The notes under the pieces: model-generated | Seen by the model: the letters and a program-made list of their open reading frames with translations, nothing else | Database searches by the model: none | Told to the model about the DNA's origin: nothing | Program-made: the position numbers and the translations under genes | Shown here: positions 11,745 to 45,894 of the stretch, piece by piece | Position numbering within the stretch: the stretch's first letter is position 1 | Layout: each line of letters begins with the position of its first letter | DNA from: a virus | Virus record (IMG/VR): IMGVR_UViG_3300020274_000001 | Coordinates: 1 to 64,000 of that record | Length of the DNA: 64,000 nt | Reading direction: 5' to 3' (one strand)

Positions 11745-11748
11745 TAAC

Positions 11749-14700: not shown

Positions 14701-15105
14701 AAGTTAACGAATATAACAGCGTATACCACAGATACACAAAATGGAGTTTATGGAAAGAAAACCTTTTTCATTAGCAATATGTCTGTCGTCAAGTTAGGTG
14801 CGGCTACGCCTGTTTCGAGTGCTATCTATATTGTCGGAATGGGCCCAGTGAATAACGTCAGAGTAATAGATGCTGGAGAACATGACATAATACCACAAGA
14901 CTCGAATCCGCTCGACCTCGGCGAAGGAGAAGGAGAAGGAGGAGGAGGAGGCTCAGTAGAAAATTGCCGGCTATTACTGATTTGTGACAACCAAGTGCGT
15001 TTGGTAATGGATGACAATTCTGGAGAACCGGTTTTATTCCCTAACTTTGCTTTTAACCCTACTCAATTAGGAATAGTAGGTGGCGGCAAAGGCGGCGGTA
15101 AGTAA
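11749..15105 (+). CDS. long receptor-binding fibre/spike (1118 aa)
   Basis: Gly/Thr/Ala/Asn rich; internal repeats GDLTVSGTTT..DNIITLNS and GNLTVSGTST..DDILTLNS; fibre-type motifs. Confidence 0.7.
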   Translation: MGDIGGHLSAKGAFIDTNNDGIVDGFAHTIKNAGNFNTFSLTNGVLTVQGPTGGAAIGGLDTHVQFNDGGVFGGESTFTYNKTSNTLNIANVVISGDLTVSGTTTTINTATLDVADNIITLNSDLGGAVAPSQNAGILINRGSSDDAQFIWDEGNDQWNFSDVGGTEHDLAGVAKVFAKGAGAVYTFTTDTDTGIEHTGTDQLGLVTGNTRVLMVSTNGVHIAPGGATGAGSNQALLVDDIVMDTQTISTLNSNKNLILAPHGSGSVELGAVSSNATSVITTPSAHNVIGTSVSIQAGSTTAGTTNNIAGGSLTLSAGQGKGTGAGGSILFKTADGGSSGSTLNPLTTKMTILDSGFVGIAQNTPTASLHVGGDAIISGNLTVSGTSTAVSTTNTFVTDDILTLNSGETANGVASGAAGIEIDRGVNGGGVDNTIARFIFDESDDKFKTQMETSSGSGSYNAAGIVASSVEGTTGTFSGDLTVDTNVLKVDTSNNRVGVNKAPTVALDVSGAVAGDSSATFGAIVQGEGILASNKSGFLVYFINNNASSTALGMPLRIDGSHATSVVQANQAQSNTLANCAVGLATGNTGNGDTGRMAVSGSLLDIPASSFTGSDPSDGDAVYVSGTAGKLTVDVPSTGYVQQIGRIQDTNVSVSGNSGTATIIISIGTPIPAEVYDGDAQGVTVVTGTLPIVSTGGATPAISINAATTGAAGSMSAADKTKLDGIEALADVTDATNVNAAGAIMHSDLGTKGDLVVGDGVGDATILSVGTDGFALTADSNEASGVKWAENYRKVKVALVGAADATLAADETLTLIGGTNVTLSENAGAVTINATGGGGGGTTQNLFETIAVSGQSNVVADSATDTLTLVAGSNMTITTNAVGDSITFASSGGGGGGSGGYPLFRHDKTPSLHNFSPFRILQDGDTIELGVSGYGGDDADVSVFTPEPKIDDGLKTDIITISDIGPVSTNTGREYIFYGQFGPPKLTNITAYTTDTQNGVYGKKTFFISNMSVVKLGAATPVSSAIYIVGMGPVNNVRVIDAGEHDIIPQDSNPLDLGEGEGEGGGGGSVENCRLLLICDNQVRLVMDDNSGEPVLFPNFAFNPTQLGIVGGGKGGGK

Positions 15106-16366: not shown

Positions 16367-17899
16367 ATGGCAGACGTCACCGATGCGACCCAAGAGGGTC
16401 AGAAAGTCACAGCGCAAGAAGTAAACATCATCGCCGCAAAAGAGATTGCGAACCTTGTTCGGTCCACCCTTGGACCTATGGGCATGGACAAGATGTTGGT
16501 ATCAAATGATGGCAGTATCACCGTTACAAATGACGGTGCTACGATTCTCCGGACGGTTAACATTACACACCCTACGGCTCGAATGATTATTCAAGTCGCA
16601 AAAGCACAGGAAGCAGAGTGCTATGACGGAACAACATCATCCGTTATCTTCGCCGGCGAGTTAATGAAGCAAACAGAACAACTACTTGCGAAAGGAATCC
16701 ACGCTACTATGATTGTTCGTGGTTTCAAGCAAGCGGCAAAGAAAGCACTCGCACACCTCGATACCATCACAGAGAACACAGGAAAGGCACTTAATGACGT
16801 AGCATTGACCGCAATGACAGGGAAGTCGGCAGAAGACGACGGAGACCATCTTGCGGCTCTGTGTGTAGAAGCGGCTACACGCTCCTCTCCAACTGATGTA
16901 AATATCGTAGTCCGACCGGGAGCACCTGTTTCCGATTCATTCTTCACAGATGGTTGTATCGTAGACAAATCAAAGATGATTCATTCCATGCCCGATGCAG
17001 TAGTTGGTGCCAAGGTTGCACTGTTCGACTGCGAATTGACCGTTCCTTCATTGGGACAAGGCGTGAATATGCAATTCAACGACCCCACATTGGCCTCCCA
17101 ATATCTCGAGGAAAAGAAATCAGAGTTAGCCACTATTGCGCAACAAATCATCGATTCTGGAGCAAACGTGGTTTTATCCATGAAGGACATTGACCCAGCC
17201 GTAGCAGACGTATTTGCCCGAAACAAAGTGTATGCGGCTCGCAGAGTAGCGGCGTCAGACCTCGAAGCAGTAGCAGTTGCAACCAATGCTACCATTGTAA
17301 GCAATGTTCATGACATTGAACCAGCAGACCTCGGAGAGTGCGATTCGGTAGAAGAGAAGAAATTCGACTTATCTCCACGCCCACTATTGTTCTTTAATGG
17401 TGTCCCAAACAGTGAAGTATCGAGTATCATGGTATTCGCACCAACGGAACACCTTGCATACGAGATTGGGAGGGCCTTGGATGACGCTGTTGGTGTAGTC
17501 CATATCGCTCACAAAGATAACGCAATTGTTTCTGGAGGAGGAAGCGCATACATGTCAATGTCACTACAAGTGAAGGATTTTGCGGCCTCCGTAGGGGGTA
17601 GGGCACAGTTAGCAGTAGAAGCATATGCAGAGGCATTGGAGATTATTCCAGCCACTCTTGCAGAAAACTGTGGGCTATCTCCTATTGATAGTCTACTCAA
17701 ACTCCGTGTAGCCCACGCTAATGGAGACCATGGAGCATATATTGATGCTTTTGAAGGCGACCTGTCTGTTGACAGAACAGTCGTCGAACCGAAGCGTGTG
17801 GTTCACACAGCCGTTCAAGGCGCAACCGATACCGCATGCATGATACTTCGTATAGACAACATCGTTACTGCGAAGGAACCAGAAGAATTTGGAATGTGA
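16367..17899 (+). CDS. ths: group II chaperonin (thermosome subunit)
   Basis: STLGPMGMDKML, TNDGATIL, CYDGTTS, GGGSAY, ILRIDNIV motifs. Confidence 0.97.
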   Translation: MADVTDATQEGQKVTAQEVNIIAAKEIANLVRSTLGPMGMDKMLVSNDGSITVTNDGATILRTVNITHPTARMIIQVAKAQEAECYDGTTSSVIFAGELMKQTEQLLAKGIHATMIVRGFKQAAKKALAHLDTITENTGKALNDVALTAMTGKSAEDDGDHLAALCVEAATRSSPTDVNIVVRPGAPVSDSFFTDGCIVDKSKMIHSMPDAVVGAKVALFDCELTVPSLGQGVNMQFNDPTLASQYLEEKKSELATIAQQIIDSGANVVLSMKDIDPAVADVFARNKVYAARRVAASDLEAVAVATNATIVSNVHDIEPADLGECDSVEEKKFDLSPRPLLFFNGVPNSEVSSIMVFAPTEHLAYEIGRALDDAVGVVHIAHKDNAIVSGGGSAYMSMSLQVKDFAASVGGRAQLAVEAYAEALEIIPATLAENCGLSPIDSLLKLRVAHANGDHGAYIDAFEGDLSVDRTVVEPKRVVHTAVQGATDTACMILRIDNIVTAKEPEEFGM

Positions 17900-30365: not shown

Positions 30366-30440
30366 GGCCCCGTGGTGTAATGGATAGCATATGAGGTTCC
30401 GAACCTCATGACCCGGGTTCGACTCCCGGCGGGGCCGCCA
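30366..30440 (+). tRNA. tRNA-Arg(CCG), CCA encoded
   Basis: Acceptor GGCCCCG/CGGGGCC; anticodon arm TGAGG-TTCCGAA-CCTCA; T arm CCGGG-TTCGACT-CCCGG; ends G-CCA. Confidence 0.95.
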
Positions 30441-33169: not shown

Positions 33170-33598
33170 ATGGGCAAGACATACTATACCTATGAAGGAA
33201 AGAAAAAGACACTCGGAAAACTATCTGCAATGTTCAACGACCTCGTTCTCGTCGAAGATGAATGGGTTGCCGCAATCCAGAAACAATTCAACAAATCTGG
33301 ATATATGCACCTACTTGCATTCGTAAAGAAAGTGGTTCGCCACGAATTATCTGTTGACTTGACAGATGCACAAGCATGGTTGGTTCTTCACGACTTGACC
33401 AATGATGGCGTCCCAATGGCTCTCCGAGATGTTGAGTCAGACGAAGATGCGAACGCCGCTAAAATCCTAAAGAGTGCGGTTGCTGGTGTTGCTAACACTG
33501 TAATGGTGCCTTTTGAGGCCACTGCGCAGGCTTTCAAGAAAAAGAAAAGCACCGAAATCGATGAGGAACTCCCAACAGAAGAAACTGTTGAAGAGTGA
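33170..33598 (+). CDS. hypothetical protein
   Basis: Operon packing. Confidence 0.55.
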   Translation: MGKTYYTYEGKKKTLGKLSAMFNDLVLVEDEWVAAIQKQFNKSGYMHLLAFVKKVVRHELSVDLTDAQAWLVLHDLTNDGVPMALRDVESDEDANAAKILKSAVAGVANTVMVPFEATAQAFKKKKSTEIDEELPTEETVEE

Positions 33599-33654
33599 TT
33601 TGTTATAGGTTATTATCCGTAATCTCTATAACCATCTTATCTTTGGTTCTCGAC

Positions 33655-34242
33655 ATGCGAGCACGTGTTCCTATTGTCAAATATTTGTCAATGGTTTCTA
33701 AAGTGGAGCCTCACAAGAAGACTACACGGTTCTACTTGCAGATGTCAAACCACCCGATAGAAGCGGGGCATGTGCTGTTTGACGATAACCCTCGTGGCTC
33801 AAACAACATGCATGTTCTCACTACTTTACTCGACTACTTGAACGCTGGAAAGTCATGTCCTAAGTGTGGGTCAAAAGACTCGGCATTAAGCCAACATCGG
33901 GGCATCGATTACCACATTTGTTCAGAATGTAATAACCGGTGGATACCGTCTTCAAACTTACCGGATGACTTCATGGGAACCACCCCTGTCTATCGACCGA
34001 AGAAAGAGAAAGACGAGTTCAAAGGTGTAAGTGCTATTGAAGTCGGAGAAGCCGGGCTCTTAGAGGGATGGCACAAAAAGGACTCTGAATGCTACGCATG
34101 TCGTTGTCCTGTTCACAACGGACAAAGTGTCAACAGTATGGTAGTGTTCAATGACGGACACTTCTACTGCCACATGAATTGTGATGGTAAAGAGATATAC
34201 CGAGTGCTGAAAGAATTGAAGAAAGAAGGAGGAGTTGAGTAA
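33655..34242 (+). CDS. Zn-ribbon plus primase-type CHC2 zinc-binding domain protein
   Basis: CPKCG...CSEC and CRCPVH...SMVVF..GHFYCHMNC. Confidence 0.65.
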   Translation: MRARVPIVKYLSMVSKVEPHKKTTRFYLQMSNHPIEAGHVLFDDNPRGSNNMHVLTTLLDYLNAGKSCPKCGSKDSALSQHRGIDYHICSECNNRWIPSSNLPDDFMGTTPVYRPKKEKDEFKGVSAIEVGEAGLLEGWHKKDSECYACRCPVHNGQSVNSMVVFNDGHFYCHMNCDGKEIYRVLKELKKEGGVE

Positions 34243-35156: not shown

Positions 35157-38100
35157 ATGGTCACAATTATCAACAGTGTATTGAAGAACGGAGAAGATGT
35201 AGGTCTGATTTCTGTAAGATGGAGAGATGAAGACGGTAATCGACAAGAAGATGTGTTCCGTCACAATCCGTATGTCTACCTTGACCCTGCAAATGTCAAC
35301 CAATTGCAATCAACGAAAGAAGTGGTAGCAGGGACACCTCGTGCTTCATTCCCGCTTTCAGAGAAAGCATTTGCTCGCCGTCTGAAAGAGTGGCGTCGTA
35401 AGAAATCATACGACAATAGAGCCATCTGGGAACAGGGCGTAAAGATGGATGGAGTTGTCCATGTCGAAGAAGACCCCGACACTGTCACAAGAGATGGTGT
35501 CACTTTGACTCGTGTTGAATTCAGAGATGCACGCTCCCGTTCTGCTTTCCGTCGTGCCTATTCCGGTCTATCTGCTTCCAGAACCAAGCATGAGGAACAG
35601 TTCTGTATACGCCCTCCTATGGAGAAGGATTCTTTCGAATCGTTGTTTAACGACTCTCCTACACATACGCTATACTTTGACCTTGAATTACTCCAATATC
35701 ACGGTAATGGAGACTTCCCCAAATACACAGATATGCGTAATCCTCGGCACGATGTCCGCATAGGATTGAACAGTGCTGGGCTACAAGAGATGTCTCTGAT
35801 TGCAGTATACGCTGATTGGCTCGACCAATACCTTGTATGGGCACATCACCCTAACTTTGCCGAGTATGATACCGGTGCTTTACCGAGAGAGTATGCAGAT
35901 ATGGGAGAAGTCCGATACTTCAACGATGAGCGAGAGATGCTTGAGAATTTCGTGCAATGGATAGATATTATGGACCCAGACATGCTTGTAGCATGGAATG
36001 GTGACGGATACGATTTACCTATGCTACGCTACCGTCTTGAGGTAACAGGAGTCGGTGCTGACCGCATGTCTCCACGAGTGTCCTCTTCTAACGGTCAATT
36101 TACTACTACACCAGATTACCTGCCACCGTCTGACAATTGGACAGAGGAAGGAGAGCGTGTAATGAAGGGCAAATATGCCGCTTCCCGACAACCAATTCGT
36201 GGTAGGGCGAGTATTGACTTGCAACCTGCTTTCGTAGGTTGGTGGCGTTCTACCAAAGGACAAACACTTGGGTCGTATATATCGCTCGACAGGGCTACAA
36301 ATGACCTTCTCAAAGACTACATTAGTGTGGGTAAAGCAACAGACTTCAAGCCAGACTTTGACGACAAGACCTATGATACCTTCATTGAGGATTATATCTA
36401 CTATAACATAGTTGACGTAGCCGCTATGGTTGAAATCGAACGATATGCAAATGTCATCGAATTGCACCTTGCTATGCAGAATTTCTTGAAGGTTCCATTT
36501 GGCTCTACTTTCAACTCTACTCGCTTCTGTGGTGTCATGTTCAGTAAGGAGGCAGGGTTCCTTCCTGTCGACCCTGTATGGGATAATCAGCCCTATCAGA
36601 CCTATTGGGCATACGACCCCGAAACAGGAGAGCGTAGCGATACTGGAAACTTGCTTGACCCGAAGAACAAAGACGACGGTTTGGCGTATGAAGGTGCAGA
36701 AGTCGTGGACGTTCTATCCGAAGGTAACAAAGGATTACACTTCAATGTAGCCGCTTTCGACGCAAAGTCAATGTATCCATACAACATTGTGGGTAAGAAC
36801 ATCTGCTGGTTGACGGCATACAAGCCTCAAGAGGGCGACCCTAACGCCGTGTGGTTCGATATTCACTTGAGGAAAGGAAAGAAAGTGGTCGGTCGAGAAT
36901 CGATTGCTTTCCACCCAGCCGACAAGATGGAAGGCTCTTTGCCACGCATCGTATCTGTTGTCCTTGAGCGTCGTGCTCATTACAAGAAGGTGGCCAAGGA
37001 GTGCCGTCTTGCTGGTGACGACCTTGGTGCAAAGCAAGCCGATAACATGCAGAAGGCTGTGAAGGTTGTAGCCAATTCCTTCTATGGTGTTCTTGGTAAT
37101 GCTTGGGAATGGGGTCGAGATTCTCTTGACTTTGCTACATTCGGCCTTGCAGGTGCTACTACCAAATTCGGTAAGAAACAGGTTCAAAGTTGCCGTAAAT
37201 ATTGTGAGGACCTTGGTTACAAATCTATCTTCGGGCACACTGATTCTGTGTTCGTGAAGATGGGAGACGACAGGACTGTCGAGGACTGTATCGAGCAATG
37301 CCTAACCTTGGCCGATGACATCAGTGCCCACATCCAAAAAGACCTTGGTCACACAGGCGCAGAGTGGGAATTCGAGCAATTCATGGACCGATATTTCATT
37401 GCGAAAAAGAATCGGTATGCTGGTCGTATTGCATGGGTCGATGGTGAAATGGTTACCGATAAGCCGCTATCTCAACGACTGAAAGCGTCTGGATTTGAAT
37501 TGAAAGCCGCTAACACTTCCAAGGTTGTCCGAGATGTCCAATTGGAGACTCTGTCGTTGATGTTTGACGGTGCTGGTTTCAACGAGGTTGTTGATTTCTG
37601 CCGAGATAAATACGATACTGTGGCCTCTGGTAAAGTCCCTGTGGCTGAATTGGCTCCCCGTATGACAATCCAACAACATCTACCCCACCGATATCAGAAA
37701 ACTGGTTGGAATCGCTACTCTCCTTGTAGTTGTGGTGGATGCCCCATTATGGTCACTAAGGGGATGACAAAGGCCCAGAAGGGCGGACTTCGTAAGAATC
37801 GCAAGGATGACCTATGTTATACCATACAGGGTCCTCGTGGGTCAGACCACAGACGATACACCGTAGGTGAGCCTCTATGGAGACTAATGGATGAGCGTGC
37901 ATCTGCGGCGGCTTGGTTCAATGATTTCATTGCTAATGAGAATGAGCCTCCTATTGTCAAGGGTGAGTCGTTTTACTCCATACCTGTCCGAGATGGTCCC
38001 CATCCTGTCCCATACAGGAATAACAAGGTTCTGGGCCGTCAGTATGGCTTCATTGGTGTCCGTAGCATAGAACAAGCCGGGGCGTTCACTCCAGACTTTG

Positions 38101-38219
38101 AGGCTCTTGCCAATTCTACTGTTGTTGAGCCTCTCAAGAACGTGTTTGAAGGTATGCAGTGGGATATTGAAATCATCCGTGGTTTCAGACCTCCTACTCT
38201 CCAAGAATTTCTCTACTAA
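35157..38219 (+). CDS. polB: family B DNA polymerase (RNA-primed type)
   Basis: Exo YFDLE, WNGDGYDL, YNIVDV; polymerase FDAKSMYP, KVVANSFYG, GHTDS, KKNRYAG. Confidence 0.97.
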   Translation: MVTIINSVLKNGEDVGLISVRWRDEDGNRQEDVFRHNPYVYLDPANVNQLQSTKEVVAGTPRASFPLSEKAFARRLKEWRRKKSYDNRAIWEQGVKMDGVVHVEEDPDTVTRDGVTLTRVEFRDARSRSAFRRAYSGLSASRTKHEEQFCIRPPMEKDSFESLFNDSPTHTLYFDLELLQYHGNGDFPKYTDMRNPRHDVRIGLNSAGLQEMSLIAVYADWLDQYLVWAHHPNFAEYDTGALPREYADMGEVRYFNDEREMLENFVQWIDIMDPDMLVAWNGDGYDLPMLRYRLEVTGVGADRMSPRVSSSNGQFTTTPDYLPPSDNWTEEGERVMKGKYAASRQPIRGRASIDLQPAFVGWWRSTKGQTLGSYISLDRATNDLLKDYISVGKATDFKPDFDDKTYDTFIEDYIYYNIVDVAAMVEIERYANVIELHLAMQNFLKVPFGSTFNSTRFCGVMFSKEAGFLPVDPVWDNQPYQTYWAYDPETGERSDTGNLLDPKNKDDGLAYEGAEVVDVLSEGNKGLHFNVAAFDAKSMYPYNIVGKNICWLTAYKPQEGDPNAVWFDIHLRKGKKVVGRESIAFHPADKMEGSLPRIVSVVLERRAHYKKVAKECRLAGDDLGAKQADNMQKAVKVVANSFYGVLGNAWEWGRDSLDFATFGLAGATTKFGKKQVQSCRKYCEDLGYKSIFGHTDSVFVKMGDDRTVEDCIEQCLTLADDISAHIQKDLGHTGAEWEFEQFMDRYFIAKKNRYAGRIAWVDGEMVTDKPLSQRLKASGFELKAANTSKVVRDVQLETLSLMFDGAGFNEVVDFCRDKYDTVASGKVPVAELAPRMTIQQHLPHRYQKTGWNRYSPCSCGGCPIMVTKGMTKAQKGGLRKNRKDDLCYTIQGPRGSDHRRYTVGEPLWRLMDERASAAAWFNDFIANENEPPIVKGESFYSIPVRDGPHPVPYRNNKVLGRQYGFIGVRSIEQAGAFTPDFEALANSTVVEPLKNVFEGMQWDIEIIRGFRPPTLQEFLY

Positions 38220-38528: not shown

Positions 38529-41500
38529 TCACTCGGTATACTTGAGTAACTCTTGACCGACCAACGGTGCTCTTCCTGCTATTGTTGAGCCTGTGACAGA
38601 GCGCATATCGGATACATTTCCAATCACTACTCCTCCTCGCAATTGCTTCTTCACGTCTTCCATAGCCATCGAATCGAAAGTATTGACGGAATTCGTCCCT
38701 ATGTTGCCAGAACCCGGACCTAAACCAATCAGTTTACCTTTAGCAGATATTGCTTCTGCGATAGTAGTGACATACCGGTAATCATAGTCACCTATTCCGC
38801 TTGAAGCATTCATCTGATAATTCAGTTGGTCCGCTACACAGGCTTGAGCGGCTTCTATTCCGAGGAACTTCTCTACTGTCTTAGGGTTGTCACACCATAT
38901 TGAGTCAACGTCAACATAATCTCCAAGTAATCGGACAAGGCCATCCCACACCTGTTCATGAGCAGAATCAATTTGCAAACCATACTTTCCATCTTTACGG
39001 GTGATGTATGTGGAACCTCCTTGTGGTAATCCGGATACTTGAACCAGAGAAATGTAGTCTCGCATGTTTAGCATTGCTCTGGCAGAAGTAGAATTCACCT
39101 TGATAACGAAGTTATCTCCTTCACCAATCTCTGCTCTCAACTCTCCGTCTGGTGAACTTTGCAGGTCACGGAAGACCCTTCTCACTTGTCTCATGGCAAA
39201 CTCAAGGTCGATGCTCTTATCTCGGGCCTTCTTTCTATCAACATAGAAGATACATAGCCCGTTCTCTACATCGTAGTCTACAACATCAAGTATGTCGCCA
39301 ATAAATTGAACTGAACACCAATCTGCAATACGGTCAGCGTCTTCCTCATTCCAATACTCTGGCTTCAGAGTGACGTAGGTAAACACCTGCTTACCCGGGT
39401 CGCTTTGGTCGGAACACTGGACAATTTGGTCAAGACGGTCCACAGATGTTCCCTGTCCTTTACCACCAGCGTGGAATGTTCTAAGTGAACCCTGTGTTGC
39501 CGGTTCTGCGAGACAACCTGCGGCGGTAGAACCGATTGCTTCTCCGGGCTTAACCTTGTTCTCTTCAATCCACCAGAGTAATTTGTCTACCATTGTTTTT
39601 ACCATGGGCTTCATGACCTCTCTTTTAGATAGAACATGTTTTACAGCCGAAATTAGTTTGTTAAGGTCGTGTTTCTTGGAAATTTCGTCTTCGAAGAACT
39701 CTATATGGGCACTTCCTTTAACACACTCGTCGCAATCCATCCCAAGTGGAACCTTGTGTTTACATGTAAAGTCGAAGAAATACGGTTGTAATTCTATGGT
39801 AAAGTCTTCGTCGGGCCCGCTAACAGTAAAGTCTTCTTTTACCTGTCCGTCTGGGAATCGGTGAACCATCTTAGCAGAGTATGGTCGGAACCCGTCTCCA
39901 CCGGCTCTGAAGGATATAACCGAGTTATCTTTCAAGTCTATGGTCTTTCCATCCTTATCTACCACAAGTGATTCTAATGCTCTCCTTACCCTGTTAGCGA
40001 GATAACCAGAGTCTTGTAGAGCACCAGATGAAGATTCCATGTCTGACCTTCTTCCGGCAACAGAAGCCATGAAGTATTCGTGTGGCTCCATTCCGGTGTA
40101 ATATGAGTTACGAGTATATCCATTGTGTATTGGGTGCTCTATATCGTATCCACTAAGAGGATAGTGAGAAAAGTTTCGTGGTAGAATCGTGGTATGTTGT
40201 ATTATTTCTTGAGGGGCCATTTCTCCATCTTCATTCTCTTGATAATTCTTGTATGAAGTCCACCCTTTACTTTGGAAGCCTCGCACTGGCAGAACTCCAG
40301 AAATCCTAACTTGTCCGTATGCCGCCCCCATCTGTTGGATGTTGAGTTCCTTACCTCTGCCCCCAGACCTAACTGCAATCTCCATAGCGTTGTCTGCACC
40401 AGCGATTTGAGATACTGCCATAGCGACACCATCTTCCCAAGGTGCCTGTGCTTCGTAAATGAGCATTTGACGGAACTGATATGGATTCTTATCGAGAATC
40501 TGTTGCTTCTCTGATTTAGAATAATCTGGAGAAAGCCATTTGTCACTATCCACATACCTCTGTAAGTTATAATTAGCGAAGTCGATATTTATCTGCTTGC
40601 ATACTTCGGAGGTTGTATCATAACCCGCTCGTATGTCTTCATAGTATTCCATAGGTAAACCACAATCTGCAACACCCATCGAATAACCTACTGCGTGATG
40701 TGCGGCAAATCCAAGACGGCACAACATATCGATGAATTTCTGCATCTGCTTACCGCCTTCTTCGTAACCAAAGCGATAATAGAACGCGGGAGCAATTGTT
40801 CCCTTTTCTTTACCTGCGAATGTCTTGTCAAGCGTTCCCGTAATCATCTCACCGTCAATGATTACCGTCGTGTCTTTTTCGGGCTTTCCTTTATCGTTGA
40901 GAACCATAGAGCCGTCTTCTTTGTAAAGTATACCAGACTTGAATTTAGCATTGATTCCATCTGGTAGTAGGAGACTTATGCACCGATATCCAGAATAGTA
41001 TTTGCCTTTGACATCGGGTTTACCAATGTCTTCGATATATTGGATACGAGCGTCTCCATCTGGTAGTAGGCTTCCGTCTTTGTGGTATACTTTACTGAAT
41101 AATTCAAGCATACTCTTCTTACTGAAATAAACTACGCCATCTGAATCGAAACCGACACCGATGGACTCGTTGAAAGTATTAGCCTTACTCTTATGCTTCA
41201 TTGTCAAGAGATAAACACCAGAAGTCTGGTCGTGGTCTGTTCCAATTACCAACTTACCCATACGGTGATGAAGCATATTGTCCCTCAACTGTAACTTATC
41301 TCTTATTTCGTTCATGGCCTCTTCAGACCCCGGAACATAGATGTTCATTTGGTCACCGTCATAATCTGCGTTAAATGGAACACAAATCGCAGGATTAAAC
41401 GATATCGAATGCTGGTCTAACGGAACTACTCTCAATCCATTCAATGATTGACGATGTAGGGAAGGCTGTCGGCCAAACAAAACATAATCTCCGGGCAATA

Positions 41501-43523
41501 AGTTACGAGCGACAACATCTCCGACTCTTAATTTAACAGACCCTTCTGGTCCAAACATTTCTCTACGCCTCTCCATGTTCTTTTCCCACTCAAACATCCA
41601 TTCTTCTCGCTTCATTTTTTTAGCGAAATCTACGGTGCTATTTTCGTCTGGCTTAGGTATAGTCTTCTTGTGCTCTACCCATTCTTCGCCGATGGCCCCC
41701 CATCTTCCGTTGTTCCAGAGAGGGGTATCATCAAGTTTCCACCTTCTGACTTCCTTGAGTCCGAATGGTTCAATCCACATCGCTCCCGGATATCTTTGCT
41801 TTACAATATCTCCGAGAGACCAATTGTGTGTAATTGACCGCTTTTCAGAAGGCACCCCTCTAATGACGAGTTCTGTTAATTGGTCTATGTTTTCTTCCGT
41901 TACCTTCACTCTCACATACGTGTTCATACACGCCGCAGTAGGCACTCCAACTTCGTTAATCGAAAGGTCTCCGTTAGCCGTAATTACCGACCGTATGACA
42001 TTGTTAACCACTTTGGAGTTCATCCTTCTCCGAAAGATGGTTTTCTTGCTTCCATATCCCGACACCGTATCGAGGATACCGGCCCTAATTGTCCGCTTTT
42101 CTCGCCCTGCTTTCGTGCGGACCATCTTGGCTCTGAACATACCAATGCTGGCGTTCTGATTGTAGAAGCAATGGGCGACGGAACGGAACAAGTCGCCCAC
42201 CATACGGGTTTGAATTTGACCGGGGTCGTAAGCACGTTGTTTCGCTTGCTTAATCTGATTATTGACACGGACAACTTGCGAATACATCATAGTGAGGTCG
42301 TTCTCCATCGGTCTACCTGTCTTGAAGTCTTCTTGCATTGGTCGCATAGTATTGGGCGCAACCGGCAGAACCTTCATCATCATGTATTCGGGACGCATAG
42401 TAGGGGCGTCAAAGCCCATCATACGAGCATTTTCGTCTGTAATCGACTGTAATAGAATATACACGTTAGAGTAAGGATAGAATCGGGGCCCAACCTTCTT
42501 CTTTAGTGCTGGTTGTAAAAGGAACATTCTTTGTCTTATGTTCCATGTTACTAACGGTGAATCTTTCTCACAATGAGGGCAAATAAGAACGCCTCTATTG
42601 GAATCCCTATTCTTTTCTTTCCTAATCGCTGTATTGATTAAGTTACGAATCCTACCCACGCCGCTTGGGTTCTTGGATATTCGGTGAATCCTCTCTATTT
42701 TCGGTGATAACTCATCATACCTTTCATCAGATATTGGAATCTTGAAACAATGGTGGCAGAACATGTTCAAGACGGAATCAAATGAATTCGGATTGGAGGC
42801 TATTGCGAACAAAACATGGGGAACAGGTTCAGCGAGTTCGATGTGTCCAAAGTGACCGGGGCAGTAGGGTGGGTTGTCGAGTAAGCCCTCACATGTTTGA
42901 CATTGTCCACTTCTTTCACTTGCCCCAAGTCTGCCGTCTACTGGACCATTCATTACGGGAGTAGGTTGTCGAGTCTGTGTTATTGTAGTGTGATTGTTTA
43001 CCTGTAATACAGACATCGCTCGTATATCTTCTGGAGACATCATATTCATTCCTACACGACGAATTACCTTCTCGTCGGTGGTCACTACCGTATCTTTCAC
43101 ATTTACTTTCGCTGTGAATCGAATAGGGGTTGAAACATATACTCCTCGCATACCCATGTCATCGAATTCATCTGGATATTGCTCGGATAAGTCATACACA
43201 TCTTCTGTTTCATAGAAGGTAGCCGGGATTGTAGGAACAACCCCTTCTTCGTCGGGGGTATCATCAAATGTTCCTACATTAACTTGACCTACGAGATAAT
43301 TAATTTTACTCGACCGTAATCCTTCTGCGTCAGGATGCATGTAAAAATATGCAATGGCGGCTGTTTCTCTGTCTGGTAGAAACCTTCGGTCTCCCCCAGA
43401 AATATCAATATCTGCTACTGTAATTTCCTTTCCGTTTTCCAACAACTCTGACCTAAGTTGGTCTTTACGGAAGAACCAATAGAATGAGGTAACTTTGAAT
43501 GGCCCTTCTTGTTCTTCATCCAT
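38529..43523 (-). CDS. rpo1: DNA-directed RNA polymerase largest subunit, fused Rpo1N+Rpo1C (A'+A''), with N-terminal extension
   Basis: SPEDIRAMSV, CQTC..CPGHFGHIEL, RSVIT, GRQPSLHR, catalytic FNADYDGDQMN, SGYLANR, AEPATQGSLRTFH, LGIEAA. Confidence 0.95.
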   Translation of the reverse strand: MDEEQEGPFKVTSFYWFFRKDQLRSELLENGKEITVADIDISGGDRRFLPDRETAAIAYFYMHPDAEGLRSSKINYLVGQVNVGTFDDTPDEEGVVPTIPATFYETEDVYDLSEQYPDEFDDMGMRGVYVSTPIRFTAKVNVKDTVVTTDEKVIRRVGMNMMSPEDIRAMSVLQVNNHTTITQTRQPTPVMNGPVDGRLGASERSGQCQTCEGLLDNPPYCPGHFGHIELAEPVPHVLFAIASNPNSFDSVLNMFCHHCFKIPISDERYDELSPKIERIHRISKNPSGVGRIRNLINTAIRKEKNRDSNRGVLICPHCEKDSPLVTWNIRQRMFLLQPALKKKVGPRFYPYSNVYILLQSITDENARMMGFDAPTMRPEYMMMKVLPVAPNTMRPMQEDFKTGRPMENDLTMMYSQVVRVNNQIKQAKQRAYDPGQIQTRMVGDLFRSVAHCFYNQNASIGMFRAKMVRTKAGREKRTIRAGILDTVSGYGSKKTIFRRRMNSKVVNNVIRSVITANGDLSINEVGVPTAACMNTYVRVKVTEENIDQLTELVIRGVPSEKRSITHNWSLGDIVKQRYPGAMWIEPFGLKEVRRWKLDDTPLWNNGRWGAIGEEWVEHKKTIPKPDENSTVDFAKKMKREEWMFEWEKNMERRREMFGPEGSVKLRVGDVVARNLLPGDYVLFGRQPSLHRQSLNGLRVVPLDQHSISFNPAICVPFNADYDGDQMNIYVPGSEEAMNEIRDKLQLRDNMLHHRMGKLVIGTDHDQTSGVYLLTMKHKSKANTFNESIGVGFDSDGVVYFSKKSMLELFSKVYHKDGSLLPDGDARIQYIEDIGKPDVKGKYYSGYRCISLLLPDGINAKFKSGILYKEDGSMVLNDKGKPEKDTTVIIDGEMITGTLDKTFAGKEKGTIAPAFYYRFGYEEGGKQMQKFIDMLCRLGFAAHHAVGYSMGVADCGLPMEYYEDIRAGYDTTSEVCKQINIDFANYNLQRYVDSDKWLSPDYSKSEKQQILDKNPYQFRQMLIYEAQAPWEDGVAMAVSQIAGADNAMEIAVRSGGRGKELNIQQMGAAYGQVRISGVLPVRGFQSKGWTSYKNYQENEDGEMAPQEIIQHTTILPRNFSHYPLSGYDIEHPIHNGYTRNSYYTGMEPHEYFMASVAGRRSDMESSSGALQDSGYLANRVRRALESLVVDKDGKTIDLKDNSVISFRAGGDGFRPYSAKMVHRFPDGQVKEDFTVSGPDEDFTIELQPYFFDFTCKHKVPLGMDCDECVKGSAHIEFFEDEISKKHDLNKLISAVKHVLSKREVMKPMVKTMVDKLLWWIEENKVKPGEAIGSTAAGCLAEPATQGSLRTFHAGGKGQGTSVDRLDQIVQCSDQSDPGKQVFTYVTLKPEYWNEEDADRIADWCSVQFIGDILDVVDYDVENGLCIFYVDRKKARDKSIDLEFAMRQVRRVFRDLQSSPDGELRAEIGEGDNFVIKVNSTSARAMLNMRDYISLVQVSGLPQGGSTYITRKDGKYGLQIDSAHEQVWDGLVRLLGDYVDVDSIWCDNPKTVEKFLGIEAAQACVADQLNYQMNASSGIGDYDYRYVTTIAEAISAKGKLIGLGPGSGNIGTNSVNTFDSMAMEDVKKQLRGGVVIGNVSDMRSVTGSTIAGRAPLVGQELLKYTE

Positions 43524-44361
43524 GTCTACACCGCACCTTGAATTTCAATTGGCGGGTGATACGATGGTTTTGCGTTCCCTCTTTTGCGAATGCTGGCCTG
43601 TCAACATCAGCAAAAAGAAGTCCCGTGAGGTCTACGACCTGTCCCGCCGGAACATAGTCGTAACCCTTTCTGTTGACGTTTCGGCGAACACGCTCTTTTC
43701 CGCTACCTACTTTGTCATAAAGGGCCTCATCTGTCGCAAACCATTCTACTACCAGAGGTCTGGCCGAATAGATTTGCGGGACCATAGTGAATCTCATTTG
43801 ATAATTGGCCTGCTTTAGCATGCCGTCAAAGTATCCTTCTTCTATATCTGAAGTTACTTCGATTGTCCATACTCTGTTTTTTTCTCCATCAGATTTAATA
43901 TCGAATATATCCGAAATAGGTATATGTGTTCCTTGACGGAGGTTAGTTTTGATACTGTTACCAAAGTTAACTATGGCGAAAGGCTTTCCGCCTTGTTGTA
44001 ATTTTACATTGTTTCCATACTCTCCGAGTTTAGACCACGGAGCATCTCCGGGCACAACATTCCGAGAATCGGATAGCATTGCTTTCTGCATTGCGTTGCC
44101 AAAGTTAGCGACACGTATATTCGGCTTATATCCTTGACAAAACCAATTAGTATGAACCTTGACTAACCGTCTCGTTTTCTTTTCCCATAAAACACAACCC
44201 CCATACTGTCCTTTACCGACAGGTTTGTAGAATTTACAGGTCCCACACTTCTTTTTATCGTTGGGTGCTATGGTTTCTATTTTAGTCCCGCGAATAGACT
44301 TCAAGGCGGCGGCAATGGTGGGAGTTGGAACCATCCCTAACCCACGCTTGTAGAAGTCCAT
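43516..44361 (-). CDS. hypothetical protein with N-terminal 4-Cys metal-binding motif
   Basis: CGTCKFY...GGCVLW...NWFCQGY. Confidence 0.6.
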   Translation of the reverse strand: MDFYKRGLGMVPTPTIAAALKSIRGTKIETIAPNDKKKCGTCKFYKPVGKGQYGGCVLWEKKTRRLVKVHTNWFCQGYKPNIRVANFGNAMQKAMLSDSRNVVPGDAPWSKLGEYGNNVKLQQGGKPFAIVNFGNSIKTNLRQGTHIPISDIFDIKSDGEKNRVWTIEVTSDIEEGYFDGMLKQANYQMRFTMVPQIYSARPLVVEWFATDEALYDKVGSGKERVRRNVNRKGYDYVPAGQVVDLTGLLFADVDRPAFAKEGTQNHRITRQLKFKVRCRHG

Positions 44362-44378
44362 CGATACACCCCAAGCGT

Positions 44379-44837
44379 TCAGTCATCATAAGGATAACCC
44401 GTAGAGCATACATATGCCAACTTATCTACGAACTCGTTTAGCGGTTCTCCGCTATGTCCTCTCACCCATTCGTATTCGGGTTCAGCAGGAAGGTCTCCCG
44501 AGATATTGTCTATCTTTTCCATGATTGGCTTCAAATTGGGAGACTGTATGTCATATTCTCCTCGTAGTCCTTTAACAGATACTTCACTATCCGAATATAC
44601 TACGAGAGACATGACCTCTCCCTCAATCTTTTCGGTAACTTCCTCTAAGCACCGCATGATAGCGTAAAGTTCGGCATAATTGCTGGTCTGGGTGCCTATG
44701 AACTCTGCTCCGCAGAACAATATGTCGTTACCATCTGTGACGGCGTAAGCAATTCCGCAGTCTCCTCGGCCACTGTTCTTTCTCTTGATTGTTGAACCGT
44801 CTGTCCAACATTCAAGTATCACATCAGTCATTGACAA
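44379..44837 (-). CDS. rnhA: ribonuclease HI
   Basis: WTDGS, SNYAELYAI, YSDSE, WVRGHSG..NEFVDKLA. Confidence 0.93.
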   Translation of the reverse strand: MSMTDVILECWTDGSTIKRKNSGRGDCGIAYAVTDGNDILFCGAEFIGTQTSNYAELYAIMRCLEEVTEKIEGEVMSLVVYSDSEVSVKGLRGEYDIQSPNLKPIMEKIDNISGDLPAEPEYEWVRGHSGEPLNEFVDKLAYVCSTGYPYDD

Positions 44838-45075
44838 TCAGCCTCCATGTGAGTAATTTGCCACTCACAAGGTCATCTCTTTCAATCTGAACGATGTCTC
44901 CAACTTCCATGTCTTGTCCTTCTGCTCTCATGCGAACCAGCACGGCATCACTGAACAGAATGCGAGGCATTCTTTCGATGTCGTCTACTTTTTGTTGTTT
45001 GAGTATGAGGTTGCCTTGTGCTTTAGTTAAAACTTTGTGAATGGGGACTCTGCGGTGCTTTAGTGGGTCTGCCAT
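44824..45075 (-). CDS. rpoH: RNA polymerase subunit Rpo5 (RpoH)
   Basis: HRRVPIHKVL...MPRILFSDAV...VGDIVQIER...TWRLIV. Confidence 0.88.
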   Translation of the reverse strand: MADPLKHRRVPIHKVLTKAQGNLILKQQKVDDIERMPRILFSDAVLVRMRAEGQDMEVGDIVQIERDDLVSGKLLTWRLIVND

Positions 45076-45326
45076 GGTTCGGGGACGTTGTTGTCAGACA
45101 TATCCCTTTCCCGAGATAGGCGTATCCACCCCGCTACACCCATGAACACAGATAACAAGAATAATCCGACAAAAAATAGACTAATACCGTCTATCCACAC
45201 ACCCAGAAAGACGGTAAGCAAACCAAGAAAGCAACAAATGACGTCAACTACGCCCAACCCGAAGTTGCTTTCTTCTCTTGAGAGTAAATCATTCCCAATC
45301 GTCATCCCAATCATCGTCGTCGTCAT
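45060..45326 (-). CDS. small two-TM membrane protein (start uncertain)
   Basis: Hydrophobic segments; fills the gap in the operon. Confidence 0.45.
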   Translation of the reverse strand: MTTTMIGMTIGNDLLSREESNFGLGVVDVICCFLGLLTVFLGVWIDGISLFFVGLFLLSVFMGVAGWIRLSRERDMSDNNVPEPWQTH

Positions 45327-45798
45327 CGTCGTCGTCTGAAGTGTCGTTCCCTTTGCTCATTAGAGAGTTTAATCCCCATTCGTCATCAGAATTTTCAGAT
45401 TCTTCTTTCTCTTCGGGTTCTTCCTCTGGTTCTTCCTCTGGTTCTTCCTCTGGTTCTTCTTCGTCATCATCTAAAGAATCCCAATCGACATCATCATCTT
45501 CGTCCCAATCTTCGTCTTCGTCTTCGTCTAAGGAGTCCCAATCTGCGTCATCCCACTCTGGGTCCCACTCTTCTTCCTCTGGTTCTTCTTTCGCCTTTTT
45601 CTTAGAAAGAGTCTTCTTTTTGGTAGCAGGCTTCTTGGTAGAAGGTGCATTATCGGACAAATCGACGCTTTTGAGCGTGATTGAGTCGTTCTTCTTGAGT
45701 GCGAGGCTTGGTTCTAACCAACCCGATAATTTATTCTTCACTGACTCAAGGTTCTTGCCTTTAATTGATACCGTTATGTCGAAATCGAATTCCTTCAT
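45289..45798 (-). CDS. protein with long Asp/Glu/Trp-rich acidic tail
   Basis: EEPEEEP and DWD repeats; first gene of the RNAP operon. Confidence 0.7.
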   Translation of the reverse strand: MKEFDFDITVSIKGKNLESVKNKLSGWLEPSLALKKNDSITLKSVDLSDNAPSTKKPATKKKTLSKKKAKEEPEEEEWDPEWDDADWDSLDEDEDEDWDEDDDVDWDSLDDDEEEPEEEPEEEPEEEPEEKEESENSDDEWGLNSLMSKGNDTSDDDDDDDDDWDDDWE

Positions 45799-45894
45799 GG
45801 ACGTGGCAGGTTAATATTGGACATAAAGAATGCGGTCAATCTCTATTTCTCATAAAAAGTAACAGTTATAGGTGAAACCGTCTTGGACTTATCA

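Follow-up and report, generated by a model that had tools for sequence, protein, structure and literature searches.

A closed virus-like genome of archaeal aspect encodes RNA polymerase subunits Rpo1 and Rpo5 and no detectable Rpo2

How might a virus use the largest subunit of a cellular-type RNA polymerase when the second-largest is not encoded with it? The question is raised by a 64-kb stretch of DNA (hereafter the window; positions 1 to 64,000 of IMG/VR virus record IMGVR_UViG_3300020274_000001), in which an earlier note, made from the letters alone, had seen an archaeal virus-like genome encoding its own multi-subunit RNA polymerase. According to a review of transcription, archaeal viruses encode no RNA polymerase (statement in PMC5569661), and in a second source homology to any polymerase subunit is absent from all archaeal viruses sequenced, which number more than 230 (statement in PMC9501531). 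These statements contrast with a closed genome, of a marine lineage that is widespread, in which Rpo1 is conserved and looks catalytically intact, Rpo5 accompanies it and no Rpo2 was detected.

The gene at issue (protein P0001; 38529..43523, minus strand) encodes a fused Rpo1, the RNA polymerase largest subunit, of 1664 aa with Pfam Rpb1 domains 1–5. Domains 1, 2, 5 and 3 (PF04997, PF00623, PF04983 and PF04998) lie above their cut-offs, with E-values of 4.6e-45 to 8.1e-17, and domain 4 (PF05000) scores 24.3 bits, slightly below its cut-off of 24.8 bits. The top relatives in the PDB are archaeal Rpo1N/A' chains (292–234 bits). The single ORF spans both archaeal A' (to residue ~1215) and A'' (from residue ~1289), a fusion that is not eukaryote-like as such, since single-ORF Rpo1 also occurs in 5/26 extracted archaeal loci, from Bathyarchaeota, Nitrosopumilales, Thermoproteota, Nitrososphaeria and Pacearchaeota MAGs. 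Between the end of the A' matches and the start of the A'' matches, the archaeal split site is occupied by a linker (residues ~1216–1288; 39660..39878, minus strand), in which C1254, H1256, C1264 and C1267 are invariant in 28 family sequences and probably bind zinc.

Both the length of this protein and its N-terminal extension had been described correctly in the earlier note. Pfam domain 1, like every match in the PDB, begins at residue 150–154, and therefore about 150 N-terminal residues are extra. They form a family-specific domain (residues 1–150; 43074..43523, minus strand) that is missing from the archaeal, eukaryotic and giant-virus rows of the alignment and in which, among 30 family sequences, W16 and A56 are invariant and F14, P50, L69 and R70 nearly so. 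Its AlphaFold model has a pLDDT of ~81–94 over residues 11–150. A Foldseek search with this model returned nothing at E <= 0.001, and the best VIA-align match reached a Z of only 4.3, with ADP-ribosyltransferase-fold proteins making up most of the listed rows. Besides this domain, Rpo1 has ~120 inserted residues relative to archaeal Rpo1.

As judged from conserved residues, Rpo1 looks catalytically intact. Both the catalytic loop NADYDGD (residues 718–724; 41352..41372, minus strand) and the sequence AEPATQGSLRTFH, which the earlier note had quoted for a divergent bridge helix and trigger loop, are present. In the family alignment, N718, A719, D720, D722, G723 and D724 are invariant in 28 members. 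The proposed change from NADFDGD to NADYDGD is real in this protein and is not fixed in the family: position 721 is Y in 19/28 and F in 9/28 aligned members, with F found even in relatives that are 80–84% identical. When aligned to archaeal, Pol II, Pol III and giant-virus rows, the bridge helix region (residues ~1148–1190; 39954..40082, minus strand) has a recognisable C-terminal half (SGYL..R..RALES), whereas its N-terminal half is strongly divergent and one residue longer. Strong divergence is confined to this half of the bridge helix; in the trigger loop (residues ~1336–1356; 39456..39518, minus strand), the core EPxTQxxLRTFHxxG is kept and the canonical Met after TQ is replaced by G or A in the family. 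Invariance among the 28 members, which go down to 30% identity, extends beyond the Asp triad to many Cys/His residues of the clamp and to many residues of the bridge helix and the trigger loop.

Rpo1 is the last of six same-strand ORFs that abut or overlap from 45798 down to 38529, a run that looks like an operon and, as proposed earlier, includes Rpo5 and RNase HI. Its first gene (45289..45798, this and the next four on the minus strand) encodes a 169-aa protein with a short N-terminal domain, a long acidic tail rich in Asp, Glu and Trp and no Pfam family; a counterpart is found upstream of Rpo5 in 44/55 family loci, a count that the low-complexity tail may inflate. An 88-aa hydrophobic protein (45060..45326), also without a Pfam family, was seen only among close relatives, those with an Rpo1 identity of 56% or more. 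Rpo5 (44824..45075), an RpoH-type protein of 83 aa, matches Pfam Rpb5_C with 47.4 bits against a cut-off of 23.5 bits (46.3 bits in the six-frame search) and was found in 56/62 family loci. In 19 archaeal loci, its family profile picks up the short RpoH ORFs that precede rpoB (62–148 aa stop to stop; E 7e-14 to 3e-20). Eukaryotic RPB5 is longer than the archaeal form, and the viral protein is of the short archaeal form, without the eukaryotic N-terminal jaw domain. RNase HI (44379..44837; Pfam RNase_H, E 7.1e-13) lies upstream of Rpo1 in 68/70 family loci with enough flank. The ORF that directly precedes Rpo1 (43516..44361) encodes a 281-aa protein with a Cys-rich N-terminus and no Pfam family; it is specific to part of the family, with a homologue in this position in 24/65 loci with enough flank. 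Convergent with Rpo1 is a family B DNA polymerase (PolB; 35157..38219, plus strand; Pfam DNA_pol_B, E 2.3e-28), a homologue of which is present in 36/36 of the family loci whose flank extends 3.5 kb or more downstream of Rpo1. The Rpo1 family comprises at least 263 marine metagenomic relatives; its members are fused proteins of 1548–1690 aa, and the Rpo5–RNase H–Rpo1 synteny is conserved across the 80 independent metagenome loci that we compared.

The window is the first part of a closed genome of 140,336 bp, with an exact terminal repeat of 55 bp and a CheckV completeness of 100% in its virus record. Over the 140 kb, Rfam detects one tRNA only and no rRNA. The capsid candidate is a 496-aa protein with a putative jelly roll, which may be single or double; its predicted structure (pLDDT 72.3) is closest to the SPV1 capsid protein (Z 11.3, 143 residues aligned), with lower matches to GH172 (Z 9.2) and the HHIV-2 capsid (Z 8.2). 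A 242-aa FtsK/HerA-like, packaging-type ATPase is also encoded (DUF87/HerA match, 25.5 bits), and no HK97-type capsid, portal or terminase was detected in the genome by Pfam scans and PHROG matching. Because of the terminal repeat, the completeness, the capsid candidate, the ATPase, the single tRNA and the absence of rRNA, the contig is supported as a virus-like genome and not a cellular fragment.

The information genes of this genome look archaeal in their best matches. Against the PDB, Rpo1 scores 292 bits with an archaeal chain versus 217 bits with Pol II, and the thermosome scores 374 bits with an archaeal chain versus 243 bits with CCT. With regard to Marine Group II (Poseidoniales) as a possible host, the top cellular matches of the thermosome, at 42% identity, are spread over various archaeal phyla. 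In the phylum of a Thermoplasmatota MAG, Rpo1 is 29–35% identical (best segments) to the 80 matched of 81 genomes sampled, and the tRNA-Arg is at most 84% identical among 401 genomes. Shine–Dalgarno-like motifs of the GGTGA type precede 27/122 genes, versus 3.3 expected by chance, and together with the overlapping same-strand genes they point to prokaryotic translation. The closed virus record, the archaeal-looking information genes and these motifs uphold the earlier reading of an archaeal virus-like genome.

The rest of that reading, a complete polymerase of its own, is not supported. Rpo2 had been noted as missing from the window, and it is likewise undetectable in the whole 140-kb genome: a six-frame search with PF00562 gave 0 candidates (the control was positive in 14/14 genomes), and an HMM of 15 archaeal Rpo2 sequences, applied with the --max option to every six-frame ORF of 30 aa or more, gave a best E of 2.6. 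Of five Rpo2 signature patterns, four are without a match in the genome and the loosest has one chance match, whereas the same patterns match 14–15/15 archaeal Rpo2. With hhalign, the probability for Rpo2 reaches at most 22%, in an alignment of 24 zinc-ribbon columns. The genome-wide absence describes one genome, its relatives being read within flanks of ±10 kb, and no Rpo2 at E <= 1 was found in the 1.06 Mb of flanks from 80 family loci. Six-frame searches of the genome found no RNA_pol_N, RPAB4, Rpb6, RNA_pol_L, Rpb7 N-terminal domain, TBP or TFIIB, and the polymerase subunits in Pfam scans are limited to Rpb1 and Rpb5, with no basal transcription factor above cut-off. The same scans list a TFIIA match at E 0.0076. 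Across the complete genome, neither a cognate second-largest subunit (Rpo2/β) for Rpo1 nor Rpo3/11, 6, 7, 10, 12, TBP or TFB was detected. The earlier note had offered two alternatives, an enzyme completed elsewhere in the genome or a swap of viral Rpo1 and Rpo5 into the host enzyme; because the search of the rest of the genome for Rpo2, Rpo3, Rpo11, TBP and TFB found none, the swap would be the better of the two.

We therefore propose, with a confidence that we place at about even, that the Rpo1–Rpo5 module of this ~140-kb marine archaeal-type virus docks on host Rpo2 and its platform to give a hybrid enzyme, which we infer from the genes, their conservation and synteny, and the undetected Rpo2, other subunits, TBP and TFB. 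When archaeal polymerase is assembled, an "Rpo1 module" joins late; viral Rpo1 and Rpo5, made after infection, would together form this module and would dock on a pre-formed host Rpo2–Rpo3/10/11/12 platform, alongside Rpo6 and the Rpo4/7 stalk of the host. The pairing of Rpo1 with Rpo5 would make sense because, in the account of assembly given in PMC13556214, the Rpo3/11/10/12–Rpo2 sub-assembly is first and very stable and Rpo1'1''-5-6 is late to join. In line with this pairing, the placement of Rpo5 ahead of Rpo1 parallels the rpoH–rpoB–rpoA order of the extracted archaeal loci, RNase H taking the place of rpoB. The clamp, jaw and cleft of the chimeric RNA polymerase would be viral, so that its promoter use, factor binding or inhibitor sensitivity might be unlike those of the host enzyme, and the RNase HI of the operon may clear R-loops or RNA–DNA hybrids that such an enzyme leaves behind. 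Compatibility with host Rpo2 is not obvious, since viral Rpo1 is only 29–35% identical, in its best segments, to Rpo1 of the 80 matched genomes and the strongly divergent N-terminal half of the bridge helix is the part that adjoins Rpo2 in known structures. More tentative, and in our estimate somewhat short of even, is the fuller reading in which a chimeric enzyme arises by swapping only Rpo1 and Rpo5, the Rpo1 lineage split before or near the archaeal–eukaryotic radiation, the N-terminal domain is weakly ADP-ribosyltransferase-like and the lineage is widespread in the sea.

Alternatively, the polymerase could be complete and viral, with a second-largest subunit that is encoded but diverged past recognition, perhaps in a large unannotated or polyprotein-like ORF. 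Polymerase subunits that cannot be recognised by sequence occur in jumbo and crAss-like phages. The genome encodes giant multi-domain proteins, and a partner could hide in one of six large ORFs, since these (981, 801, 1439, 978, 1455 and 909 aa) have no Pfam family and PHROG matches at chance level at most (E 0.047 and 0.067). We nonetheless consider this unlikely: Rpo1 is so easily recognised that a co-evolving partner should be too, yet the HMM, motif and hhalign searches gave no Rpo2, and large family-less ORFs are absent near the Rpo operon in all 80 family loci. Two further large ORFs at 9909–15105 (1118 and 611 aa) are Gly/Thr/Ser-rich and fibre-like, and the 611-aa ORF matches a virion structural PHROG. 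A different role altogether, in which viral Rpo1 and Rpo5 do not serve viral mRNA and act as a host-shutoff decoy or in R-loop or primer synthesis with RNase HI and PolB, would suit the RNase HI between Rpo5 and Rpo1, the invariably convergent PolB and the undetected viral TBP and TFB. A pure decoy, however, needs no Asp triad and trigger-loop core kept invariant down to 30% identity, and archaeo-eukaryotic primase domains and an MCM helicase, which the genome also encodes, already serve priming and unwinding; we judge this role distinctly unlikely.

That the element infects a eukaryote and, being related to giant viruses (Nucleocytoviricota or similar) though reduced, has a giant-virus-type RPB1 is suggested by the closest IMG/VR matches of Rpo1 besides its own genome, which are giant-virus MAGs at 22–30% identity, and by domains typical of eukaryotes that are matched weakly or in part (SWIB at E 8e-13, DUF5824 and, under its cut-off, a GATA-like zinc finger). 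In our tree, the Rpo1 family forms a long-branched clade of its own, apart from the archaea, eukaryotes and giant viruses that were sampled; its stem, placed outside the 25 archaeal rows, measures 1.2 substitutions per site, and the family does not sit on a short branch with host-type genes. This deep placement is a weak point, as long-branch artefacts are likely. An AU test does not reject a grouping of the family with eukaryotes plus giant viruses (p 0.17), but it rejects a clade with giant viruses alone (p 8e-5). The higher scores of archaeal over eukaryotic chains for Rpo1 and the thermosome, the short archaeal Rpo5, the signs of prokaryotic translation and the absence of Rpb2, otherwise carried by polymerase-encoding giant viruses, also argue against a eukaryotic host, and we regard it as very improbable. 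We find it hardly credible that the contig is a cellular chromosome fragment or an assembly chimera. Published accounts, in their remarks on magrovirus group D, which has no closed genome there, left it open as a virus, a plasmid or an uncultured archaeon (Philosof 2017, PMC5434244; Xu 2023, PMC10160649). Against this reading stand, besides the viral features described above, the contigs of 131–153 kb that carry the relatives, the synteny in 80 independent loci and a DNA run of another study, which covers the stretch piecewise with zero differences.

If viral Rpo1 and Rpo5 do dock on host subunits, this would be the first case known to us of a virus swapping the catalytic core subunit of a cellular polymerase, and a natural experiment in how far Rpo1–Rpo2 interfaces can diverge and still work. 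The deep, long-branched Rpo1 may also bring a further lineage into the discussion of what viruses contributed as polymerases evolved, a weak point given the likely artefacts.

When compared to known systems, the closest counterpart is magrovirus group D, for which a gene set of PolB, thermosome, resolvase and RNA polymerase A is described, the RNA polymerase gene being already in print in one sentence (Philosof 2017, PMC5434244). All four genes are present in the 140-kb genome. Group D is described in the relevant passages as lacking a recognisable morphogenetic block (PMC5434244; PMC10160649), which agrees with the undetected HK97-type capsid, portal and terminase here; unlike published group D, our genome is closed and encodes both a capsid candidate of jelly-roll type and an ATPase resembling FtsK/HerA, which bears on the 2017 question of whether group D is viral. 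The passages on group D in these two papers make no mention of Rpo5, a missing Rpo2 or the operon. The genome most likely belongs to the group D lineage, an assignment by gene content and not by sequence comparison with published group D.

The viral proteins resemble archaeal cellular RNA polymerase in the domain order of Rpo1, the Asp triad, the trigger-loop core and the short RpoH-type Rpo5, which, as in the archaeal rpoH–rpoB–rpoA order, precedes Rpo1 on the same strand. Unlike in the archaeal operon, the rpoB position is taken by RNase HI and the 281-aa ORF, and unlike archaeal Rpo1, the viral protein has the 150-aa N-terminal domain, the inserted residues and the long stem. With Nucleocytoviricota such as vaccinia, ASFV and mimivirus, the genome shares a virus-encoded fused RPB1 homologue and an RPB5 homologue. 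Nucleocytoviricota with a polymerase also encode RPB2 and further subunits and factors, whereas none of these was found in our genome; a giant-virus clade is rejected, and with viral Rpo1 as query, ASFV RPB1 scores 88 bits versus 292 for archaeal A'. Like jumbo (phiKZ-like) and crAss-like phages, this is apparently a virus of prokaryotes with a double-psi β-barrel polymerase gene. Those phage polymerases are very remote from cellular enzymes and form complete β/β'-like sets or single chains with both barrels, whereas viral Rpo1 is readily recognisable as archaeo-eukaryotic in type and its second barrel subunit is missing. We know of no precedent for viral replacement of the catalytic largest subunit alone; known takeovers by phages and archaeal viruses (T4 AsiA/MotA/gp55, phage sigma factors, the archaeal virus inhibitor ORF145/RIP) add factors or modify subunits. 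The logic proposed here would be the same as in those systems, in that the virus, instead of supplying a whole enzyme, redirects the core enzyme of the host.

The fused largest RNA polymerase subunit (Rpo1, A' plus A'') lies in an operon of six same-strand ORFs that abut or overlap, called in the window from 45798 down to 38529 (-). The first gene encodes a 169-aa protein (45289-45798, -) and is followed by those for an 88-aa hydrophobic protein (45060-45326, -), Rpo5 (44824-45075, -; Pfam Rpb5_C, 47.4 bits), RNase HI (44379-44837, -; Pfam RNase_H), a 281-aa protein without a Pfam family (43516-44361, -) and the 1664-aa Rpo1 (38529-43523, -), with which a family B DNA polymerase (PolB by Pfam; 35157-38219, +) is convergent. 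Rpo5 has the short RpoH architecture. Within Rpo1, Rpb1 domains 1, 2, 3 and 5 exceed the Pfam cut-off, with domain 4 just below it, and the translation contains NADYDGD and AEPATQGSLRTFH. Because neither Pfam models nor solved structures match before residues 150-154, the first 150 residues are extra. The ORFs, the Pfam domains, both motifs and the N-terminal extension thus bear out the Rpo1/Rpo5/RNase HI operon that an earlier note had described. The 169-aa protein consists of a short N-terminal domain followed by a very acidic tail of ~110 residues, enriched in Asp, Glu and Trp, which could serve as a DNA mimic or a polymerase-binding tail. An ORF on the strand opposite its gene (45278-45814) is Ser-rich, of low complexity and probably spurious.

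Rpo1 belongs to a family of marine metagenomic sequences, of which a word-indexed search recovers 40 full-length relatives (1548-1690 aa; identity of 28-96%; contigs as long as 131-144 kb for some); below these, similarity falls steeply to that of cellular enzymes. Among viral contigs, a scan with the Rpo1 alignment finds giant-virus MAGs only (22-30% identity), and a scan with the single protein finds no match. At least 263 relatives occur on metagenome contigs, from which 80 loci were retained. Where the flank is long enough for a call, RNase H precedes Rpo1 at 68 of 70 loci; Rpo5 is seen at 56/62, an acidic protein at 44/55 and the 281-aa ORF at 24/65, and PolB is convergent and downstream of Rpo1 in every case (36/36). 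A 28-member alignment reaching down to 30% identity shows no variation at the three Asp, at many of the clamp Cys/His or at key positions of the bridge helix and trigger loop. Position 721 is Y in 19 members and F in 9, close relatives of the window sequence included. Where archaeal, Pol II, Pol III and giant-virus rows read PYNADFDGDEMN, the family reads PFNAD[YF]DGD[AQ]M. Relative to these rows, its bridge helix is divergent in the N-terminal half and longer by one residue, and its trigger-loop core is retained with Met changed to Gly or Ala. The same rows delimit insertions in Rpo1 at residues 6-147, 591-627, 641-661, 779-798, 813-827 and 1086-1115, and a linker with invariant Cys/His covers the site of the archaeal A'/A'' gene split. 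Since a single-ORF Rpo1 (1154-1287 aa) occurs in 5 of the 26 archaeal loci extracted, namely those of Bathyarchaeota, Nitrosopumilales, Thermoproteota, Nitrososphaeria and Pacearchaeota MAGs, having A' and A'' joined in one chain is nothing unusual by itself; named Korarchaeota and Bathyarchaeota entries are likewise unsplit.

The N-terminal domain of Rpo1 (residues 1-150; 43074-43523, -) is family-specific, conserved in an alignment of 30 members and confidently folded in an AlphaFold model. Foldseek returns no match for it at E <= 0.001, and VIA-align gives a weak list (Z <= 4.3), about 40 of whose 50 rows are, judging by their titles, ADP-ribosyltransferase-fold proteins. The domain alignment shows no obvious catalytic Glu that is conserved, and the likeness, drawn from a predicted model, is a lead only.

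To place the family, we inferred trees with FastTree (207 rows) and with IQ-TREE under LG+C20 (65 rows, 1248 columns). All family members fall into a single clade (support of 100, stem of 1.2), apart from the 25 archaeal rows (99) and likewise from eukaryotic Pol I-III plus giant viruses; with a bacterial outgroup, archaea, eukaryotes and giant viruses together split from the family (97). No short-branch grouping with host-type genes, which the earlier note had held to speak against a viral polymerase, is seen in this phylogeny. AU tests were run on 32 rows under LG+G4, which is more prone to long-branch attraction than the mixture model. They reject the union of the family with four rows from a Thermoplasmatota MAG and its GTDB phylum (p 0.0006) and with giant viruses (p 8e-5), weakly reject that with all archaea (p 0.022) and do not reject that with eukaryotes plus giant viruses (p 0.17). 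The deep position of the family is unsafe because the family and the bacterial outgroup are flagged by the tool as long branches that meet. It is safe to say that none of the sampled cellular lineages was a recent source of this Rpo1.

The virus record, whose first 64 kb make up the window, is 140,336 bp as a whole with direct terminal repeats, rated 100% complete in IMG/VR, and we find an exact 55-bp repeat at both ends. It contains 178 non-overlapping ORFs of at least 60 aa, most of them without a Pfam family; the Pfam protein scans covered all except those at genome positions 103583-104356 and 123531-124079, both of which fell within the six-frame and HMM searches. Pfam identifies PolB, MCM, archaeo-eukaryotic primase domains, a thermosome subunit and a serine resolvase. 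Further matches are to a PD-(D/E)XK nuclease, SWIB, a second RNase H, a protease of retropepsin type, a transglutaminase-like domain and a metzincin-like motif. Giant multi-domain proteins combine HAD phosphatase with NUDIX in one case (genome 120396-123200, +) and an HD-like domain with guanylate kinase, Ham1 ITPase and DUF5824 in another (genome 131318-137944, +). Rfam detects a single tRNA, Arg (CCG), at 30366-30440 (+), and no rRNA in the genome. Two domains typical of eukaryotes are found inside this archaeal-type genome: a GATA-like C-x2-C-x17-C-x2-C zinc finger in a 352-aa basic protein (genome 68005-69063, +; 20.7 bits, below the cut-off) and the SWIB/MDM2 domain in one ORF within 43-68 kb (E 8e-13).

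All four marker genes of magrovirus group D (PolB, thermosome, resolvase and RNA polymerase A) are present, so that by gene content this is probably a closed group D genome. In the available text of Philosof et al. 2017 (PMC5434244), group D is placed next to the magroviruses, and later papers, as far as their accessible parts go, describe it as lacking a major capsid protein, possibly plasmid-like and enriched in the cellular size fraction. We observe a candidate for that protein in a 496-aa product (4227-5717, +) that is well conserved across the clade (56-93% identity), with homologues on contigs of 137-153 kb. Its AlphaFold model, built from a 21-sequence alignment (pLDDT 72.3, pTM 0.69), is closest to the capsid protein of Sulfolobus polyhedral virus 1 (Z 11.3, 143 residues, rmsd 4.5; Foldseek against the SPV1 chain, E 4.7e-4), followed by a GH172 double jelly-roll enzyme (Z 9.2) and the HHIV-2 capsid (Z 8.2), while an ESM Atlas look-up scored at most 0.82, below usable, with an Atlas model of pLDDT 0.37. 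On this predicted fold, the protein is a candidate major capsid protein of a lineage said in print to be without one. A candidate for the packaging ATPase is a 242-aa P-loop protein (genome 138396-139124, +), which passes the cut-off of HerA/DUF87 and stays under those of TraG/TrwB-type models. HK97 capsid, portal and terminase families were not found in the genome, and moderate evidence points to a jelly-roll type virion. Among 10 large or structural ORFs compared with PHROGs, 7 have no match, 2 match at chance level and the 611-aa ORF (9909-11744) falls in a virion structural family; both it and the 1118-aa ORF (11749-15105) are fibre-like. In the layout of the genome, the ATPase gene and the block of the capsid candidate are on either side of the terminal repeat.

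Gene starts in this genome seem to be of two classes. One of GGTGA, AGGTG, GGAGG and GAGGT, a signal of prokaryotic translation, precedes 27 of 122 starts at a distance of 4-17 nt (random 14-mers: mean 3.3, maximum 8 in 200 trials), with 15 of 41 genes at 1-47 kb, 10/32 at 92-140 kb and 2/49 at 47-92 kb; hairpin-ATAG-ATG junctions are common at ~64-76 kb, inside this middle block poor in Shine-Dalgarno-like motifs. In RNA libraries, which yield short contigs only, from two studies, and in which uncovered parts are uninformative, exact pieces of the operon appear in two metatranscriptome runs of one sample (41582-41733 in one run, ~45137-45301 in both), and an oligo-dT run of another study has pieces 90-95% identical over Rpo1, the 281-aa ORF, RNase H and Rpo5. 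Carry-over of DNA is possible for these matches, and many of those at 45298-45347 are low-complexity.

A multi-subunit polymerase requires the double-psi beta-barrels of both large subunits, according to the available text of PMC13556214. No Rpo2 candidate is found in the genome by a six-frame search with PF00562, whose control was positive in 14 of 14 genomes. We built a second model from 15 full-length archaeal Rpo2 sequences, taken directly upstream of Rpo1 in named MAGs; run with --max against all six-frame ORFs of at least 30 aa, it gives a best E of 2.6. Of five signature patterns that recover 14-15 of these 15 sequences, four have no match in the genome and the loosest matches one short ORF. 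By hhalign against those of the 178 ORFs that are at least 120 aa, the Rpo2 profile reaches a probability of at most 22%, for 24 columns of a zinc ribbon, and 1.06 Mb of family loci (+-10 kb flanks) contain no Rpo2 at E <= 1. The 1118-aa ORF, suspected by its size, is Gly/Thr/Ser-rich and was set aside. Six-frame searches of the genome, with recovered Rpb5_C as the positive control, likewise find no RNA_pol_N, RPAB4, Rpb6, RNA_pol_L, Rpb7 N-terminal domain, TBP or TFIIB. A TFIIS-type zinc-ribbon match at 33853-33942 (+; 14 bits, E 0.01), in an ORF (33595-34242) with homologues in 4 of 80 family loci, was rejected as a cleavage factor, as inspection found the acidic hairpin missing. By these searches, the record beyond the window shows no Rpo2, RNA_pol_L, TBP or TFIIB; completion of the polymerase elsewhere in the genome was one of two alternatives considered in the earlier note.

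Six large ORFs have no family, and one of them might be a viral Rpo2 beyond recognition, which we regard as rather unlikely next to these searches. A decoy or a role in replication priming for the viral Rpo1/Rpo5 appears quite improbable. A eukaryotic host, the union left standing by the AU tests notwithstanding, is very unlikely. Against solved structures, Rpo1 scores 292-234 bits with archaeal A' chains (~900 residues), followed by Pol II RPB1 (217), Pol III (209), Pol I (124), bacterial beta' (~100) and ASFV (88), and the thermosome subunit (16367-17899, +) scores 374-283 bits with archaeal thermosomes versus at most 243 with CCT; together with the short Rpo5, these scores speak for an archaeal provenance of the information genes. 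The best cellular matches of this thermosome in GTDB genomes are at 42% identity in varied archaeal phyla and give no host signal, although the peptide patterns used may miss closer ones, and this low identity does not fit recent capture from a known host. In the phylum of the Thermoplasmatota MAG, 80 of the 81 genomes sampled have a match to Rpo1, each at 29-35% identity; the tRNA-Arg(CCG), compared with 401 genomes of that phylum alone and at most 84% identical there, says nothing host-specific. That the contig is a cellular fragment or a chimera is hardly credible. Contigs from a DNA run of a different study match most of the stretch piecewise, with 0 differences.

Reviews state, in their accessible parts, that archaeal viruses encode no polymerase subunit (PMC5569661, PMC9501531), and in the open literature searched the only mention of a virus-encoded archaeal polymerase is one sentence, that on group D (Philosof et al. 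2017). To this the present analysis adds a closed genome, a conserved operon of Rpo5, RNase H and Rpo1, the lack of Rpo2 and of the other subunits, a deep Rpo1 clade that stands apart, the N-terminal domain of Rpo1 and candidates for the capsid protein and the ATPase. In archaeal assembly, as given in the available text of PMC13556214, the Rpo3/11/10/12 platform forms first and is joined by Rpo2 into a very stable sub-assembly, after which Rpo1'1'' enters late with Rpo5 and Rpo6, and the stalk comes last. Of these parts, the virus encodes precisely the large one that enters late, along with Rpo5, its partner in the jaw. The reading we favour, at roughly even chances, is a hybrid virus-host polymerase, in which viral Rpo1-Rpo5 would compete with host Rpo1 for host Rpo2-platform complexes. 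The outcome would be a chimera whose surfaces at the clamp, cleft and jaw are viral, which might alter promoter or factor use. The viral gene order echoes the archaeal rpoH-rpoB-rpoA arrangement, but with rpoB missing.
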